Source of the DNA: Candidatus Micrarchaeota archaeon
Lineage (GTDB): Archaea > Micrarchaeota > Micrarchaeia > Anstonellales > Bilamarchaeaceae
DNA length: 64,000 nt
Direction: 5' to 3'
NCBI GenBank assembly: GCA_038046765.1
Contig: JBBSVN010000004.1
Coordinates: 32,001 to 96,000 of the forward strand
How positions within the stretch are numbered: the first letter of the stretch is position 1; every line of letters starts with the position of its first letter. The notes under the pieces were generated by a model. That model was given only the letters and a program-made list of their open reading frames with translations. It did no database searches and was not told where the DNA came from. Positions 23,563-55,619 of the stretch are shown one piece after another. The position numbers were made by a program, and so were the translations under genes.

Positions 23563-24145
23563 CTAAAAAGTTCTTAAGTATTTGTTTTCCTTCTTCGCTC
23601 ATTATAGATTCTGGATGAAATTGAATTCCAAATATTGGAAATTGTTTATGTCTTAGTGCCATTATTACATTGTCATCTGTACTTCTTGCAATAATTTCTA
23701 AACAACTAGGTAATGAAAATTCATCAGCAATTAATGAGTGATAGCGCATAATACTTAGAGGATTTTTTATATTCTTGAAAAGCCCATTTCCATTGTGGTT
23801 TATCTGACTAGTCTTTCCGTGCATTGGTTTTTGTGCTTTTATTACCCTGCCACCAAATGCGTTAGCTATGCCCTGATGCCCTAAACAAATACCTAAAACG
23901 GGAATAGACTTTCCAAGTTCTAGAATAACTTCCTTGCATTTACCAAAATCACGTTCATTTTCAGGATTGCCTGGCCCTGGTGAAATGACAATTTTAGAAT
24001 AATTCTTTTTCTTGATTTCTTCCAAATTAATTTGATTATTTCTGATTATATCTACCTTGCAACCTAATTCTCCTAGGTATTGATATAGGTTATATACGAA
24101 TGAATCAAAATTATCAATTAACAGAACGTTCATATTTTTCTTCAC
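23543..24145 (-). CDS. trpG: anthranilate synthase component II (glutamine amidotransferase)
   Basis: IDNFDSFVYNL, SPGPG, GICLGHQ, RYHSL, QFHPES. Confidence 0.95.
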   Translation of the reverse strand: MKKNMNVLLIDNFDSFVYNLYQYLGELGCKVDIIRNNQINLEEIKKKNYSKIVISPGPGNPENERDFGKCKEVILELGKSIPVLGICLGHQGIANAFGGRVIKAQKPMHGKTSQINHNGNGLFKNIKNPLSIMRYHSLIADEFSLPSCLEIIARSTDDNVIMALRHKQFPIFGIQFHPESIMSEEGKQILKNFLDGAKDG

Positions 24146-25463
24146 CTATGGCTAAGAGTAATGGTTTTGCTTTTTGCTCGGTTTCTTCATACTCTTTTTG
24201 AGGAACGCTATCATAAACTATTCCCGCTCCCGATTGTATATATGCTTTATTTTTGTTTGAAAATAAAGTACGAATTCCTATTGCAAAATCCGCATTGTCA
24301 TTTGAAGAGAAGTACCCAACTGCCCCGGAGTATGGGCCGCGATTAGTTTTTTCTAATTCTTTTATAATTTCAATTGCACGTATTTTTGGAGCACCGGAAA
24401 CAGTTCCAGCAGGAAATATCGCTTCAAAAACATCTCCAGAATTTTTTCCTTCTTTTAGTTTGCCTTTTACAATTGAAGAGATGTGCTGGACATGCGAATA
24501 CTTACTAACTTTCATAAATTCTGGAACCGATACCGAACCGATTGCTGCGACTTTGCCAATGTCATTTCTTGTTAAATCAACAAGCATAAGATGTTCTGCT
24601 CTTTCTTTTGGATCATTAAGAAGTTCTGTTTCAAGTCGTTTATCTTCTTCAACAGTTTCCCCCCGTTTTCTTGTTCCAGCTAAAGTAGCATAGCTCGTAA
24701 TTTCTTGCCCTTCTAATCGAACTAGGTTTTCAGGACTAGAGCCAATAATTTGCCTCTCATCAAATTTCAGATAAAACATGTAGGGTGAGGGATTTATTGC
24801 CCTTAATTTTTTATAAAAAGAAATTAAGTTCCCAGAGTATTTTACTTCATATCGCTTTGAGAGTACAGATTGGAAAATGTCTCCGTTTCTTATGTGATCT
24901 TGTGCAATTTCTACATTTTCACAAAATTGTTCTTTAGTCAAATTACATTTTTTATTATACATTTCTAAAGGAGATGTGGAAAAAGAAGAATCTTTAACAG
25001 AATTTAGAATTTCATTTACTCGGTTTTCTTTTTGATAGACATATCTTAGAGTATTATTTAGATGATCGTAGATAATTACATCTTCATATATTCCGAATTC
25101 AAAATCAGGAAACCTCAGATCATTTTGAGTTTGTGCAGTAAACTTTTCTATATAATTTACATATTCAAAAGAGAAATAACCTACTGCTCCTCCAAAAAAT
25201 CCCTTTTCTTCTAGAGATGTTCTTGGAATGCATGATTTTAGGTCTTTTATCGGACTAATTGTATCTAGTTCTTGCCCATCGACCGTGATTACTCCACGAT
25301 TTAACTTTACTGTTTTTGTTGGAGAAAATCCTAAGAATGAGAATCTTGCCCTTTTTTGGTCTCCTTCGCTACTTTCAAGTAAGAAAGATGCACAAAAATG
25401 TTCATTTAGTATTGAGTATAAATCAGTTGGACTAACGTGCAAATCTAGATCTACTTTATGCAA
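24114..25463 (-). CDS. trpE: anthranilate synthase component I; true start possibly TTG 25497 via +1 frameshift
   Basis: FLLES, NPSPYM, GSSPE, AEHLMLVDL, PAGTVSGAPK, GAGIV. Confidence 0.93.
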   Translation of the reverse strand: MHKVDLDLHVSPTDLYSILNEHFCASFLLESSEGDQKRARFSFLGFSPTKTVKLNRGVITVDGQELDTISPIKDLKSCIPRTSLEEKGFFGGAVGYFSFEYVNYIEKFTAQTQNDLRFPDFEFGIYEDVIIYDHLNNTLRYVYQKENRVNEILNSVKDSSFSTSPLEMYNKKCNLTKEQFCENVEIAQDHIRNGDIFQSVLSKRYEVKYSGNLISFYKKLRAINPSPYMFYLKFDERQIIGSSPENLVRLEGQEITSYATLAGTRKRGETVEEDKRLETELLNDPKERAEHLMLVDLTRNDIGKVAAIGSVSVPEFMKVSKYSHVQHISSIVKGKLKEGKNSGDVFEAIFPAGTVSGAPKIRAIEIIKELEKTNRGPYSGAVGYFSSNDNADFAIGIRTLFSNKNKAYIQSGAGIVYDSVPQKEYEETEQKAKPLLLAIGEEKYERSVN

Positions 25464-25497
25464 GCCAAAGTAAATCCCTTTTTCCTGTATTCTGCAA
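25456..25497 (-). promoter_or_regulatory. trpE leader ORF MQNTGKGDLLWLA* containing a candidate Trp-sensing +1 frameshift site
   Basis: GAGGTG-N6-TTG CAG AAT ACA GGA AAA GGG GAT TTA CTT TGG CTT GCA TAA; +1 frame TTT GGC TTG CAT is the trpE frame. Confidence 0.6.
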
Positions 25498-25565
25498 ATC
25501 TAGCACCTCAATAAAATTATTTTGATTAATAATCGAATTGCTGTCTAGCATATATTTAAACATTT

Positions 25566-39856: not shown

Positions 39857-39947
39857 GTCATTTCGTAACCGTTGTCGTGCCTTCTGTTGGCATTGACATT
39901 CTGCCTGTTGATGTCGTTCCTGTTGAAGTTACGGATCAAAGGGCGCA
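39857..39947 (-). repeat. DGR template repeat (TR)
   Basis: 91 nt, AAC-rich; 17 mismatches to 40416-40506, all at TR adenines on the minus strand. Confidence 0.95.
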
Positions 39948-40204
39948 GAGGTAACCCATCCACTCTAGCAAGCTGCAATTAGATTGCAGATTGCAACGGT
40001 GCCTAGCACCAACACCACAGTTTCACGTTTTCATCAAGCTAGACTACTTGGTGTCACTGTTGAATTTCATTGAGAAATATTTAGATTTCAAAATAGTGAA
40101 AATTTCTAAAGATTTTCATTCATGTCTAACTACCAAAAGGTAGCTAGCACTGTGGATGAGTGTGTGGCCCTAAGCTTACAACCTAGGGAAAAAGATAAAG
40201 AAGG

Positions 40205-50340: not shown

Positions 50341-50613
50341 TTGCCAATATTTAAATATTTTGCCATTTATAAGATAGATATGGCAAACGAGAGTATTACA
50401 TTAATTGATCAATACGGAAGGTTAGTTGTACCAAAATCAATAAGAGACAAATTCGAAACTAAGCAAGTTGTTTTGATTTATGATGAAAAAAATAAAGATG
50501 CACATATCATCCCAGTAAAGAATATATCCGAATGGAAAGGAAAATTTAAAGGAATACTAAAAAATTATATGAAAGAACACGAGGAAGACCAGAATGATAC
50601 TCATCGTAGATAG
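50341..50613 (+). CDS. AbrB/MazE-type antitoxin (likely start 50380)
   Basis: IDQYGRLVVPKSIR; overlaps the downstream PIN gene. Confidence 0.8.
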   Translation: MPIFKYFAIYKIDMANESITLIDQYGRLVVPKSIRDKFETKQVVLIYDEKNKDAHIIPVKNISEWKGKFKGILKNYMKEHEEDQNDTHRR

Positions 50614-50971
50614 TTGGGCTTGGCTAGCAACTGGTGAAGAGGGAAGACACGCAGATGAATCAATAGAACTAATAAGCAACAAGAAAAATGAAATTTTAAC
50701 AACAATGCTCAATATATACGAAGTATACTATAGGGTTACGCAAGCGTATGGAGAAGAAAAGGCAAGAAAATTCATAGAATCGATAAAACAAAGAGCCAGA
50801 ATTGTCGAAGTGGATGAGGAGCTAACATTTCTTGCAGCAAATTTGCATTTAAAAGAAAAACTTTCAGTAATAGATGCATTTGTTTATGCTACCGCACTAA
50901 AGGAAAACGGACAAGTTCTTACAGGAGACCCTCATTTTAAAGGAAAGGAAATGGTAATTTTTATTGAATAA
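50594..50971 (+). CDS. vapC: VapC PIN-domain toxin
   Basis: IVDSWAW, NIYEV, LSVIDA, LTGDPHF. Confidence 0.9.
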   Translation: MILIVDSWAWLATGEEGRHADESIELISNKKNEILTTMLNIYEVYYRVTQAYGEEKARKFIESIKQRARIVEVDEELTFLAANLHLKEKLSVIDAFVYATALKENGQVLTGDPHFKGKEMVIFIE

Positions 50972-51287: not shown

Positions 51288-51340
51288 TATAGTGGGACAA
51301 CATCAGAGCAGTTACAAACCAATAGATTTATATAGTGGGA
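51288..51340 (+). promoter_or_regulatory. tandem TATA-GTGGGA boxes upstream of the AbrB-hisS operon
   Basis: TATAGTGGGA at 51288-51297 and 51331-51340, each preceded by a T-run. Confidence 0.45.
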
Positions 51341-51414
51341 AAGAGTTAGTCAATATGTTAAAAGAAATTAAACATTATTTATAATTAAGAAAAGATGTAA
51401 TAGAGGTTTGTAAA

Positions 51415-51692
51415 ATGGTTAAAAGGGATGTTCTTCACGAGGGATTTTCTTCATTGTGCTCGATTCAAAGGCACGCCTAGTTTTACCATTAGAAATTCGT
51501 GACACCCTTAATGTAAAAAAGAACGAGAAAATTCTAATTAGCGTTAGCGATGCTAAGGAAGACAAAATCACTATAGAAATTTCTAAGCCTAGCATAAGCG
51601 ATGAAACGGATTCAATCTCATACTCCAGGAATGGAAAATATGTGAATCGGAGAAATACAGAAACTAAAGACAAACAGAATGAGGTGGATTAA
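51415..51692 (+). CDS. AbrB/MraZ-like DNA-binding protein; SD-led start at 51415 needs two +1 shifts (ORF track start 51456)
   Basis: IVLDSKARLVLPLEIR motif; tandem sites AGGGATGTTCTTCAC (51424) and AGGGATTTTCTTCAT (51440). Confidence 0.7.
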
Positions 51693-51744
51693 ATGAACAA
51701 AACAAAAAAAGGTGAAAAAGGAAAAGAGGTAAAAAGGGATTTAC
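51681..51744 (+). repeat. 64-bp leader cassette, copy A
   Basis: 58/64 identical to 52477-52540, last 36 nt identical. Confidence 0.9.
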
Positions 51745-52488
51745 TTCATCAAAAAAGATAGACAACTGAAGGAAAGAACTCGGAGAGTTTTTCGTTCGTT
51801 ATACAAGCAAGACATAATCTCTGAAGAAGAAATTGATAAAATCGAGATTCAGGAATGCGGGGAAAAATTAGTTCGTATTGAAGACCCAAAGATTATAATA
51901 GAAAAATCCGTAAAAAGACAGAAATTTGATGGAGAGGGTATTCTTTATGCTCGCCAAACCGTTGCAAAAATGCTGTATCAAGCTGCGGATACTTTGCCTT
52001 TAGGTTTTAAACTAAAATTTTTTGATGCATACAGACCATTAGAATTCCAACGAATGTTATTTGAAGAGGAATATCAAAGAACTAAAAAAGCAAATCCTGG
52101 TTTAGATGAGAGCGAAATCAGAAAGATTGTTTTTGTTTCAGTTTACCCTCCTAGCTATGATTTACAGAAACCCCCTCCGCACAGTACAGGTGGTGCGATT
52201 GATCTAACGATTTTAGATCAAAGTGAAAAGGAATTGGATATGGGTTCTAGATATTGTGAATTTGGAGAGAGCATGCACACAAATTACCCGAACTTGACTA
52301 GTTCTCAAGCCAAAAATCGATTGATACTATTAAATACGATGCTCAATGCAGGTTTTGCTAACTTTCCAGGTGAATGGTGGCACTACATGTATGGCGAAAG
52401 AGAGTATGTTGCGTATACATCAAAAATAATAGGAAAGGCAATGACTGCGATATATGCAGGTACAAAAACAAAACAAGAGGTGGAGTAA
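51693..52488 (+). CDS. VanX-like D-Ala-D-Ala dipeptidase (M15); SD-led ATG 51693 is out of frame, +1 shift proposed near 51746
   Basis: IQECGEKLV, FDAYRP, PPHSTGGAIDLT, DMG, EWWHY; frame open from 51733 with no ATG/GTG/TTG until 51970. Confidence 0.85.
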
Positions 52489-52540
52489 ATGAATAGAATG
52501 AAACAAGGTGAAAAAGGAAAAGAGGTAAAAAGGGATTTAC
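52477..52540 (+). repeat. 64-bp leader cassette, copy B
   Basis: Direct repeat of 51681-51744. Confidence 0.9.
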
Positions 52541-53677
52541 GGCACAGATACTAAGAAAGTATTTGTTTCGAGAAGTACTTGCGAAATTGAAACAATACGC
52601 AAACCATATTATGGAATAAATGTATCCCAAGGTGAAGAACCAATAGATCAACTAGATTTTCTTTTCTTTGTAAAGCGATTAGGGATTCCAATAACTGTTT
52701 TTATAGCAGGGCAATATGGAGTATTAAACGACAAAAACGGATCTGAATTAGCTAGAAAAGAGATGATAAAGGAAAATCTTTTTAGAAAATTATTTGAAAT
52801 TTTTAAAGTAAATGGACAAACTCTCGTAACCCGTCAATTATGGAGCGGTTCACCTTACTGGCAATGTGTTCTGGATTTAATAGATAATAAAGAAATGCCT
52901 TACAAAGCTAAACAGAATAATGAAAGATTTCAAAGAATAAAAACAGCATTACAAACTGATATTAAAGGATCTGCAAGACAATTATCAGAAAAAGTATTTG
53001 ATAGATTAGCTGATTTTGAGCCATCTTCATTTTATACTTTGTTTGAAGTAGCAGAAGCAAAATATTTTAGAGAAATATCGAAATATGATTCTAAAATAGG
53101 TCCGGAAAGCGAAGAACCTTATGATAGGTTCATTCGGGAATTTATGCCAACAATCCAGTTATACCAACCAATATACTTGGATTCAACATTAGAAAAAACA
53201 AGCAGAGCAATTCCGTATATGACTGGCAAATGGGGCGGAGAAAGAGTTTACTTAACTGACTCAAAAGAGGATTTATTGACAAAAGTTTACAAAGCATCCC
53301 AAAGAACTGATAGAACTCCGGTTTTTTGGAAGATAAATGGTTATTCTGCAGAGGAAACACTAACTATAAATCCATTTGCAAGATTAACTATTTTTGCACT
53401 TGAATCAGCAAGAATAGTTGATTGTTTACCCTTAAGGTTGGGCAATAGAAGCATCTATTCTTCAGAAGAAGCTCTAGAGTTCTTAGATAAATCAGGTTCC
53501 CGAGATTTACCTAAAATGGCTGGCGTTGTGGGAGAAGCGATTTGGAATTACATCCTAAGGCCAGTTCAACAACCCCTTATAAAAAAATACTTCGAAATTT
53601 CGCGCAGTTATAATGACTTTGGTGAAGAATATTTTCGTAAAGAAATAGCGCACATGAGGAGGGATGATCTACTATGA
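52489..53677 (+). CDS. hypothetical protein, possibly class I aaRS-like fold; SD-led ATG 52489 is out of frame, +1 shift proposed near 52542
   Basis: Frame of ORF 52763 is open from 52529 (KGIYGTDTKK...PYYGINVSQG...) with no ATG/GTG/TTG before 52763. Confidence 0.65.
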
Positions 53678-54387
53678 AAAAAATTGGGATTTTAGGGGGG
53701 ATGGGACCAGAAAGTACGGCCCATACATACATGAAAATGATTGAATATTGTCAGAAAGAGTATGGGGCAAAACAAGATGCTGATTTCCCCCCAATTGTCA
53801 TTTATAGTTGCCCTATTCCGGACGTAGTAAACATAAATAATAAAGAAGTCGAGCTACTGGAAAACTTAGAAAGTGGAATAGATTTGCTAAAGAACGCAGG
53901 TTGTAAATTTGCAATAATTCCTTGCAATTCAGTACAGAGTTTTTTACCTGTACTTAGCAAAAAACTTCCGATAATTTCAATAGTCGAAGAAACTATCGAA
54001 GAACTAACGAAATTAGGAATAAAGAAAGTCGGACTCCTAGCTACGCAAACAACGCTTTCTAAAAGAATTTATCAACAGGCTTTGGAAAAACAAGGAATCG
54101 AAATGATTCTGCCAGAAAACCAAAAAGAAGTAACAGAGGTAATTAGGAAAATCCTTGAGGGTAAGAAAGAAGAAACCAAAGAAAAATTATACAACATAAT
54201 AAATAATCTGAAACGCAAAGGTGCAGGTGCAGTAATATTAGCGTGTACAGATTTACCATTAATAGTTGACAAAAAAGATTTTGATATCGCAATATTAGAC
54301 ACTGTAGAAATTCTCGCAAAAGCCGCAGTTAAAAAATATTACCAGTTAATTGATTATAGGTTAAAAAGTTCGAGGTCAAATAAATGA
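53674..54387 (+). CDS. aspartate/glutamate racemase family protein
   Basis: IGILGGMGPEST, IPCNS, GLLAT, ILACTDLP. Confidence 0.92.
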   Translation: MKKIGILGGMGPESTAHTYMKMIEYCQKEYGAKQDADFPPIVIYSCPIPDVVNINNKEVELLENLESGIDLLKNAGCKFAIIPCNSVQSFLPVLSKKLPIISIVEETIEELTKLGIKKVGLLATQTTLSKRIYQQALEKQGIEMILPENQKEVTEVIRKILEGKKEETKEKLYNIINNLKRKGAGAVILACTDLPLIVDKKDFDIAILDTVEILAKAAVKKYYQLIDYRLKSSRSNK

Positions 54388-55619
54388 AAGGAACACCAAA
54401 AGGAATGCGGGATATACTCCCTGAAGACGCAATGCTGCGAAGGCAAGTGCTAGAACTGGTTGAAAAAGTTTATCGAAGTTACGGTTATGTTCCAATTGAA
54501 ACTCCTGCAATTGAATATTTATCAACACTTAAAGCAAAAGGCGGAGAAGAAATTAACAAACAAATATTTATTTTCAAAGATGAAGAAGTTGGATTACGCT
54601 TTGATTTAACCGTCCCTCTTGCTCGAGTAGCAGCTACAAATGTATTTACTAAGCCATTCAAACGATACGCATTTGCACCAGTCTGGAGATATGAAGAACC
54701 TCAAAAAGGAAGGTTTCGGGAATTTTGGCAGGCAGATATTGATATTATTGGAACTAAAGGTATGCGGGCTGAAGCTGAATTATTGACAGCAGCTAGAAAC
54801 GCACTAGTTGCACTTGGATTTAAGGAACTAAGAATTTTACTAAATAACCGAAAAATACTTGATGCATTAGCTAAGAAACTAGAAATAGAAGACAAAAAAG
54901 AATCAGTATTCAGATTACTAGATAAGATAGACAAAGTTGGAAAAGAAAAAGTTGAAGAAGAATTAAATGAAGTAATTGGAAGCGAAAAAACTAAGGAACT
55001 ACTCTCAATTCTAACTGTTTCGGGCGATAACAAAAAGAAACTTGAAATAATTAAATCAATAAGCGAAGACGGCGCAAAAGAACTGGAGGACATTTTAGCA
55101 CTAACTAACTTTGAAATCGAAATAGATTTGCTACTTGTTCGTGGTTTAGGATACTATACTGGACCAATATTTGAAATAAAAGGTAGCGAGAATATAGGTT
55201 CAATAGCAGGTGGCGGAAGGTATGATAATCTTCTAGCGGTTTATGGAAAGGAAGACGCTGCAGTTGGAATTAGTTTAGGAATTGAGCGAATAATTACACT
55301 TTTAAAAGAAAAACAAATTCAACTAAAGCGAACTTATAGTAGCGTACTAGTTGCAAATGTAAAACCAGAGTTCTATTCTTATGCAGCACAAATAGCGGGA
55401 AAACTACGAGAAAATGGAATAAATGTAGAGACAGATTTAAACGAACGAAACTTAAGAAAACAATTTGATTATGCAAATTCTTTAGGGATAAGTTATGTAA
55501 TAATTGTCGGGGAAAAGGAAATTAAAGAAAACAAGGTAACGCTAAGGAATATGAATTTAGGGGATGAAAAATTCCTAGACTTAGGGGCAACAGTTAGCCT
55601 TTTAAAAGCTTCTGTGTAA
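54384..55619 (+). CDS. hisS: histidyl-tRNA synthetase
   Basis: PKGMRD, LRFDLTVPLAR, QKGRFREFWQ, LVRGLGYYTG, GGGRYD, GIER. Confidence 0.97.
   Translation: MKGTPKGMRDILPEDAMLRRQVLELVEKVYRSYGYVPIETPAIEYLSTLKAKGGEEINKQIFIFKDEEVGLRFDLTVPLARVAATNVFTKPFKRYAFAPVWRYEEPQKGRFREFWQADIDIIGTKGMRAEAELLTAARNALVALGFKELRILLNNRKILDALAKKLEIEDKKESVFRLLDKIDKVGKEKVEEELNEVIGSEKTKELLSILTVSGDNKKKLEIIKSISEDGAKELEDILALTNFEIEIDLLLVRGLGYYTGPIFEIKGSENIGSIAGGGRYDNLLAVYGKEDAAVGISLGIERIITLLKEKQIQLKRTYSSVLVANVKPEFYSYAAQIAGKLRENGINVETDLNERNLRKQFDYANSLGISYVIIVGEKEIKENKVTLRNMNLGDEKFLDLGATVSLLKASV

Follow-up and report, generated by a model that had tools for sequence, protein, structure and literature searches.

A probable codon-matched +1 frameshift switch sensing tRNA charging in a Micrarchaeota archaeon and its relatives

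Introduction

The bacterial gene of release factor 2 (RF2), prfB, is autoregulated by a +1 frameshift that employs a Shine-Dalgarno (SD)-like element, a spacer of 3 nucleotides (nt), CUU and a slow codon, with re-pairing on UUY. The leader peptides trpL, hisL and pheL are bacterial attenuators. To our knowledge, the sensing of amino-acid supply in archaea is largely unknown, and archaea are without T-boxes and classical attenuators. Here, we analyzed a 64,000-nt stretch of contig JBBSVN010000004.1 (positions 32,001 to 96,000) of a Candidatus Micrarchaeota archaeon; this whole stretch is called the window below. In the window, cassettes of the form AGGGAT-NTN-CTT-XXX, where XXX is a sensor codon, precede genes of a histidyl-tRNA synthetase (HisRS, hisS) operon and the gene trpE. 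Sequence comparisons suggest that the cassette is probably a prfB-like programmed +1 frameshift switch sensing charged tRNA, in which a hungry sense codon replaces the stop codon.

A 2016 review (PMC5009743) covers prfB, antizyme, Ty1, hungry codons and an "incidental" pheL shift. For archaeal cellular genes, a 2021 review (PMC8211752) gives one programmed frameshift as shown, the -1 shift in fucA1, and no +1 case as established. No description of codon-matched frameshift leaders was found in the full-text literature searched, which has subscription journals outside its coverage.

Results

The His operon of the window lies on the plus strand and has five same-direction genes within 51403-55619, encoding an AbrB/SpoVT-like protein, an M15 dipeptidase, a protein of 380 residues resembling tyrosyl-tRNA synthetase (TyrRS), a racemase and HisRS. 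Each of the first three genes has an SD, an ATG and a short dead-end 0 frame, with the conserved protein in the +1 frame. Leader 1 (51403..51480) includes the SD GAGGT (51403-07), ATG at 51415 and a 21-codon 0 frame that ends with TAG (51478-80). It carries shift cassettes 1a (51424..51438, AGG GAT GTT CTT CAC, with the His sensor codon at 51436-38) and 1b (51440..51454, AGG GAT TTT CTT CAT), the latter in the +1 frame of the former, and the frame of the AbrB/SpoVT-like small DNA-binding protein (51453..51692) is reached only after two +1 steps in series. The tandem AbrB cassettes of relatives are spaced by 19 nt versus 16 nt in the window; both distances equal 1 modulo 3. Leader 2 (51681..51761) has the SD GAGGTG (51681-86), ATG at 51693 right after a TAA, and a 22-codon 0 frame closed by TAG; its cassette (51735..51749, AGG GAT TTA CTT CAT) is followed in the +1 frame by the M15 (VanX-type) D-Ala-D-Ala dipeptidase (51748..52488). 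Leader 3 (52477..52554) is built alike, with the SD GAGGTG (52477-82), ATG at 52489 right after a TAA, and a 21-codon 0 frame closed by TAA. Cassette 3 (52531..52545, AGG GAT TTA CGG CAC) has a variant P-site codon, for which orthologues have CTT CAT instead of CGG CAC, and the +1 frame encodes the TyrRS-like protein (52544..53677). The start of the Asp/Glu-type amino-acid racemase gene (53674..54387) overlaps the TyrRS-like stop by ATGA, and hisS (54384..55619, 411 residues) overlaps the racemase gene in the same way.

In all three leaders, the distance between the SD (GAGGT or GAGGTG) and ATG is 6-7 nt, and leaders 2 and 3 share 34-36 identical nt. In genes 2 and 3, the +1 frame begins one codon ahead of GGG and is without ATG, GTG and TTG for 79 and 78 codons, respectively; because the Peptidase_M15 profile match starts at residue 61 of the +1 frame, a part of this domain precedes any canonical start. 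An initial annotation of the window had reported the four junctions at 51424, 51440, 51735 and 52531, the leader ATGs at 51693 and 52489 directly following TAA, the SDs of all three leaders, two ATGA overlaps (hypothetical gene to racemase to hisS) and start-less frames of about 78 codons in genes 2 and 3; the re-reading of the sequence gave identical junctions and overlaps, and the measured frame lengths agree. A motif-free scan of the host genome for SD-led short open reading frames (ORFs) that overlap a long frame in +1 or +2 gave too much noise (81 candidates for +1); only genes 2 and 3 stand out, by their 79 and 78 start-less codons.

The identities of the encoded proteins are of different strength. 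Gene 1 has a weak NCBIfam match to AbrB (TIGR01439, 20.6 bits versus the cut-off of 28.3, E 2.8e-4) and no Pfam match at E 0.01. Gene 2 matches Pfam PF01427 (Peptidase_M15, E 1.6e-20), and the racemase matches PF01177 (E 2.9e-35) and TIGR00035 (158.6 bits). The hisS product has the HisRS catalytic core and the anticodon-binding domain (PF13393, E 2.7e-49, 168.5 bits; PF03129, 69.1 bits; both above the cut-offs). Sequence searches of Pfam, NCBIfam and PDB gave no match for gene 3, synthetase models included. Its AlphaFold model (built from 4 sequences, with a predicted local distance difference test score of 64) was compared using Foldseek, and TyrRS was the only protein among the chains listed (best 2cya, E 5.6e-9, template-modelling score 0.45-0.52). 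The HIGH motif is the class I synthetase signature for ATP binding. The TyrRS-like family cannot keep this motif because the protein has no His in 9 of 11 loci and the sole His of the window protein is residue 371. At a guess, the racemase, dipeptidase and TyrRS-like protein serve in peptide or D-amino-acid scavenging.

The core 13-mer of the cassette, AAAAGGGATNTNC, occurs four times in the window versus 0.06 expected, and none of 100 shuffles reached four. The fourth copy (25470-25482, minus strand) belongs to another leader of the same design. This trp leader (25456..25508, minus strand) consists of the SD GAGGTG (25508-03), 5 nt, TTG (25497), five codons, the cassette AGG GAT TTA CTT TGG (25479-65) and, three codons on, the 0-frame stop TAA (25458-56). 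Its +1 frame is trpE (24114..25466, minus strand; Pfam Chorismate_bind and Anth_synt_I_N), the first of seven same-strand reading frames in a row; by position alone, the other six are taken as the rest of the trp operon, trpE being the only frame that was run against a family library. The host genome is archaeal, with a 1.5 Mb assembly that is ~90% complete. It has a fifth cassette with CTT, followed here by TGC (contig C6, 8573-8810, locus L018), that heads a 68-residue HTH_7-type helix-turn-helix (HTH) protein, then a 110-residue ORF. In relatives, cassettes of this HTH_7-type family have TGC, TTC or TTG, and in genome G128 the second-gene family has its own TGC cassette.

Genes at cassette loci of the order were annotated using Pfam and NCBIfam. 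TGG precedes trpE in five cases with the exact motif and in two with the variant motifs AAGGATGTTCTTTGG and AGGGATGTACGTTGG. CAT or CAC is found ahead of one HisG (TIGR00070, 174 bits) and three HisD genes. CCA precedes three amino-acid kinases with proB as the best NCBIfam match (below the cut-off) and one ProC (182.9 bits, cut-off 196.75). TGC heads one cysteine synthase gene (cysKM, 360.7 bits, above the cut-off) and, in another family of the order, one HTH gene followed by a PALP (cysK-like) enzyme and a hexapeptide transferase. Altogether, the codon after CTT fits the pathway in each of the 15 genes or operons that could be assigned, which represent seven separate gene families. Families rather than genes were counted because orthologues are not independent, and the rough product of chances derived from observed codon frequencies is 5e-6. 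The sensor codons seen are CAY, TGG, CCA, TGC, TTY and TTR. In all 42 sites that have the strict signature described below, the sensor codon starts with T or C, as a CUU-to-UUY slip requires; 4 of 10 copies inside genes have A or G at this position. It should be noted that a second CCA cassette (locus L123; genome G001, contig C8, 49323-49372) lies directly after a proB-like gene, at the contig end. Judging by this locus, several genes of one operon may each have their own Pro cassette. The initial annotation had proposed His-codon gating of the hisS operon, together with a scan of this and related genomes for agreement between the codon following the motif and operon function. The scan was strongly positive; the gating is supported by relatives, and it is not peculiar to this operon, being one case of a general codon-matched system.

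The distribution of the cassette is centered on the window's own family, which belongs to Micrarchaeota among DPANN archaea. The motif AGGGATKTACTT was found in 50 of 176 genomes of the order, i.e., in 44 of 98 genomes of this family versus 1 of the 42 in the family next in size; the reversed control had ~45 matches over the order. The strict signature, defined as a 0-frame start at most 25 codons ahead of the site, a 0 frame that is closed after 40 codons or fewer and a +1 frame that stays open for 40 codons or more, is present at 42 of the 85 distinct AGGGATKTACTT sites. Among the other 43, at least nine stand first in a tandem pair on an AbrB gene and lack the signature because a second shift is needed, and ten are in-frame copies within long ordinary ORFs; the rest are chance matches, contig-end sites or unresolved sites. 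The pattern of GGTG (SD), ATG and cassette gave 47 matches in 37 of 99 family genomes versus one match for the reversed control. The same architecture is present in dozens of independently assembled genomes. The exact 13-mer had 11 matches in 60 relatives versus seven in the control, and this near-control level led to the use of the looser cassette pattern. A still broader pattern, AGGGATKTNCTT, was discarded in favor of narrower ones because, among the matches listed (150 of ~485 over the order), most of 30 loci are chance hits inside genes. No orthologues of the M15 dipeptidase were found in the 40 relatives searched with the window query. In other genera of the order, many trpE genes start with an ordinary SD and ATG and have no cassette; the cassette is therefore specific to certain lineages and subject to gain and loss.

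The His cassettes are linked to hisS far beyond the window. By a comparison of cassette and hisS coordinates, a same-strand His cassette is no more than 3 kb upstream of hisS in at least 16 genomes (the host G000 and G127, G022, G111, G101, G128, G152, G160, G105, G155, G047, G013, G117, G049, G100 and G014) and 7-7.5 kb upstream in five more, a lower bound from a search with some of the motif variants. For example, the order in G013 is AbrB (with two His cassettes), an unknown gene, a His-gated 361-residue protein and hisS, and the order in G128 is a His-gated hisG followed by hisS. The TyrRS-like gene has CTT-CAY or a close variant upstream in all 11 named related loci, and the order of TyrRS-like, racemase and HisRS is recognizable in six of these (from the HisRS N-terminus downstream). 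The own start of hisS is a plain AGTGAT-N4-ATG. The proteins of the operon are poor in His: HisRS has no His in 411 residues versus 6.1 expected (P 0.002), and the His counts are 0 in the AbrB-like protein, 1 in the TyrRS-like protein, 1 in the racemase and 3 in the dipeptidase; the HisRS ORFs of related loci contain 0-1 His. Neither hisD (PF00815) nor hisG (TIGR00070) was found in the ~90%-complete host assembly, and the organism is probably a His auxotroph. The response of such an auxotroph may consist of scavenging and raised charging capacity.

We propose the following mechanism. The ribosome would start at the normal SD and ATG (or TTG), translate 3-18 leader codons and arrive at AGGGAT-NTN-CTT-XXX, where CTT (Leu) would occupy the P site and the sensor codon XXX the A site. 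With ample matching aminoacyl-tRNA, XXX would be read and translation would run into the stop of the dead-end frame after a few more codons. Under shortage of this aminoacyl-tRNA, the A site would stay empty and peptidyl-tRNA-Leu would slip from CUU to UUY, aided by the SD-like AGGGAU situated one base too close to the P site, after which the enzyme or regulator would be read in the +1 frame. In the window, the four His cassettes would gate the AbrB-like regulator (two in series), the M15 dipeptidase and the TyrRS-like protein; the racemase and HisRS would be gated via ATGA-type translational coupling, and the TGG cassette would gate the trp operon. The sequences establish the anatomy of the cassettes, their conservation and the agreement of codon with pathway; the slip and its site, the dependence on tRNA charging, the role of AGGGAT and the translational coupling are inferred.

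The place of the slip is suggested by several features. The 0-frame codon after CTT carries information, and the ribosome must therefore still be in the 0 frame when this codon enters the A site. CTT is followed by T or C in three of the four window His cassettes and in the trp cassette; cassette 3 (CGG) does not fit. The 16S 3' tail is GATCACCTCA, and SDs in the host genome are GAGGTG or GTGAT. The spacing of GTGAT to ATG peaks at 4 nt (54 cases versus 23 at 3 nt), and AGGGAT lies 3 nt before CTT in the cassette, so that a +1 move would restore the preferred spacing, as had been argued from the window sequence. One relative has GGTGAA-TGT-CTT-CAC in place of the AGGGAT cassette, which supports an SD-like role of this element. 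A tRNA-Leu(GAG) gene is present in the host genome. No consistent downstream stimulatory structure was detected in folds of the 80 nt after four cassettes (z = 0.30, -0.03, -2.06 and -0.77).

Several observations weigh against a supply-sensing slip. The SD-like GGGAT differs from GTGAT by one base and is an imperfect match to the anti-SD. Re-pairing after a +1 move is poor at CGG of window cassette 3, at CGT in a trpE relative and at GTT in several second AbrB cassettes; the weakness at CGG, acknowledged from the start, stands, and such cassettes need a slip-independent route, e.g., out-of-frame entry of the next tRNA, which is described for Ty3. Ten of the 85 AGGGATKTACTT sites are in-frame parts of long ordinary ORFs, and one of the ten has CAT; the motif alone therefore cannot force a shift. 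The HTH-type genes have TGC, TTC or TTG without a nearby pathway link, except for one locus. Some trpE relatives have an in-frame ATG at or just before the cassette, where an ordinary start could be used. The only contig from an RNA library (metatranscriptome) over the locus is 152 nt long and lies inside the dipeptidase gene. Finally, no more than 11-12 tRNA genes were detected by ARAGORN and the Rfam tRNA model in the assembly of 1.5 Mb, and several of these have long predicted introns; the remaining tRNA genes of the host may be unassembled, split or atypical.

One alternative to a frameshift is that the protein starts at the ATT or ATG of GGG-ATK, the upstream SD and ATG being a regulatory upstream ORF in which the sensor codon acts by stalling or re-initiation. 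Such a codon-matched upstream ORF could also account for the pathway match, and the gene-frame codon at this position is indeed ATT or ATG in all window cassettes and all seven trpE cassettes. However, the same position is ATC in at least five orthologous cassettes, and one relative is without any ATN; the position varies among ATT, ATG and ATC in close orthologues, with Leu or Val (TTA, CTA, GTA) kept in the 0 frame. No SD is present at a usable distance, and a good SD always serves the 0-frame start. The distance from the cassette to the 0-frame stop, which varies from 4 to 38 codons, speaks against termination followed by re-initiation. Furthermore, a ribosome stalled on the sensor codon would cover the start and lower expression in starvation, which is the wrong direction, and the T or C at the first base of the sensor codon would be left without an explanation. 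We consider a non-AUG start at GGG-ATK unlikely.

Another possibility is that the frameshift is real and constitutive, i.e., serves for a fixed ratio or "correction" instead of sensing supply, with the codon after CTT kept for some other reason. This would suit the predominance of CAY (20 of the 42 signature sites), its presence on genes with no obvious His link, such as those of the dipeptidase and the AbrB-like protein, and the varying codons on HTH genes. Conversely, it does not explain the 15 of 15 matches between codon and pathway across Trp, His, Pro and Cys, nor the His depletion of the gated proteins, and the genes that seem unrelated to His are located in hisS operons. A constitutive shift is, in our estimate, rather improbable.

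The shift could also occur earlier, at AGG, through a Ty1-type hungry AGG or four-base reading of AGGG, in which case the proteins would begin with ...G-I-Y-F. AGG-G is invariant, the +1 frame is open from GGG in every case, and AAA, on which re-pairing could occur, precedes AGG in three of the four window His cassettes and in the trp cassette. This explanation appears very improbable: the preceding codon varies elsewhere (GGA, GAA, ACG, AAC, CAG and others) and cannot re-pair, and no pathway match of the 0-frame codon behind CTT could arise if the ribosome had left this frame by then. At 6.5 per 1000, AGG is in ordinary use in the host, which rules out a hungry or unassigned AGG, and AGG-G accounts for 624 of the 2003 AGG codons in genes.

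Contigs from other samples were used to check for single-base indels. At gene 2 (run X3) and at gene 3 (run X5, from another study), the junctions in these contigs are unchanged and gap-free; none of the four runs compared covers site 1. Where labelled, the runs that contain this stretch are groundwater or aquifer metagenomes. A contig of run X5 joins 51708 to 52505 via the leader repeat of 34-36 nt and skips the M15 dipeptidase gene; either a strain without this gene or a collapsed repeat could produce such a join. Sequencing error or decay into pseudogenes, which the location of the frame breaks near short A and G runs might suggest, is excluded as far as sequence data allow and has a negligible probability, given that other samples reproduce the junctions, that the break and its 12-15 nt motif recur in 37 of 99 independently assembled genomes as well as in named assemblies produced by other groups, and that the downstream frames are intact and conserved.

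Other features of the region deserve mention. Before leader 1, two copies of the box TATAGTGGGA(C/A)A were read from the sequence at 51288-51299 and 51331-51342 (plus strand). In relatives, also in another family of the order (L061), AbrB leaders have this box ~25-35 nt ahead of the SD; the two copies in the window probably act as promoter or operator of the operon. An AbrB-like and PIN-like gene pair, recognized by the look of the translations, lies in the same orientation just before the operon (50341-50971). An RT-16 RNA (RF03019) Rfam match is located at 39946-40188 on the minus strand (59.8 bits versus the gathering score of 50).

Discussion

The conservation of the cassette and its codon-pathway agreement suggest that the proposed +1 frameshift switch extends well beyond a single operon. 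We find it likely, with somewhat less assurance than for the switch itself, that it underlies a family-wide amino-acid starvation regulon of DPANN archaea (Micrarchaeota), based on a portable sensor of ~15 nt in which the swap of one codon retargets control to Trp, His, Pro or Cys, and perhaps Phe and Leu. In such a regulon, enzymes would be gated directly, AbrB-like and HTH regulators would form a second, transcriptional tier, and two cassettes in series would make an ultrasensitive switch. The His version, in a probable His auxotroph, would control a nearly His-free rescue set of dipeptidase, TyrRS-like protein, racemase and HisRS.

If true, this would be a new class of regulation, in which tRNA charging is read directly on the ribosome, as well as the first use of hungry-codon slipping at the scale of a regulon and an archaeal way of sensing amino-acid shortage. 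For annotation, recognition of the cassette rescues genes that pipelines call broken or truncated, and the sensor codon predicts the amino acid served; in the window, it links histidine with the TyrRS-like protein, the racemase and the M15 dipeptidase. A cassette of 15 nt is also small enough for direct use in reporters.

The comparison with known systems reveals partial similarities to four of these. As in the attenuators trpL, hisL and pheL, the leader frame holds the codon of the operon's amino acid, and the speed of the ribosome on this codon would set expression. In contrast to attenuators, the cassettes are without terminator/antiterminator hairpins (folds after four cassettes are not consistently stable), each has one sensor codon, leader and structural gene overlap in different frames, and the output would be a change of frame, not transcriptional read-through. 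With the antizyme +1 shift, a polyamine sensor, the proposed switch shares the principle of a feedback loop in which shift efficiency acts as sensor and effector at once; as described in the two reviews (PMC5009743, PMC8211752), antizyme differs in being eukaryotic, with a metabolite signal at a stop codon and with RNA or nascent-peptide stimulators.

The slip itself resembles those of Ty1 and ABP140 (CUU-AGG-C) and the E. coli hungry-codon shifts studied by Gallant, where, according to the same reviews (PMC5009743, PMC8211752), peptidyl-tRNA-Leu slips on CUU with the A site awaiting a scarce aminoacyl-tRNA. Ty1 depends on a permanently rare tRNA and yields a fixed ratio, whereas the hungry codon of the cassettes is common in ordinary genes and matched to the pathway; the E. 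coli work deals with starvation errors and not with a regulatory device.

The closest parallel is prfB. Both have a short 0-frame start with the main product in an overlapping +1 frame, CUU in the P site followed by U or C, and, putatively in the cassette, an SD-like element 3 nt upstream; in both, a slow A-site codon would decide between stop and shift, and the product would relieve the shortage sensed. The slow codon in prfB is the stop codon UGA, read by RF2, whereas here it is a sense codon, through which tRNA charging would be sensed. Also unlike prfB, one portable cassette with an exchangeable codon precedes many unrelated genes, the host is an archaeon and the putative SD-like element is AGGGAU. 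The cassette is not a member of the prfB class, but it would work like one.

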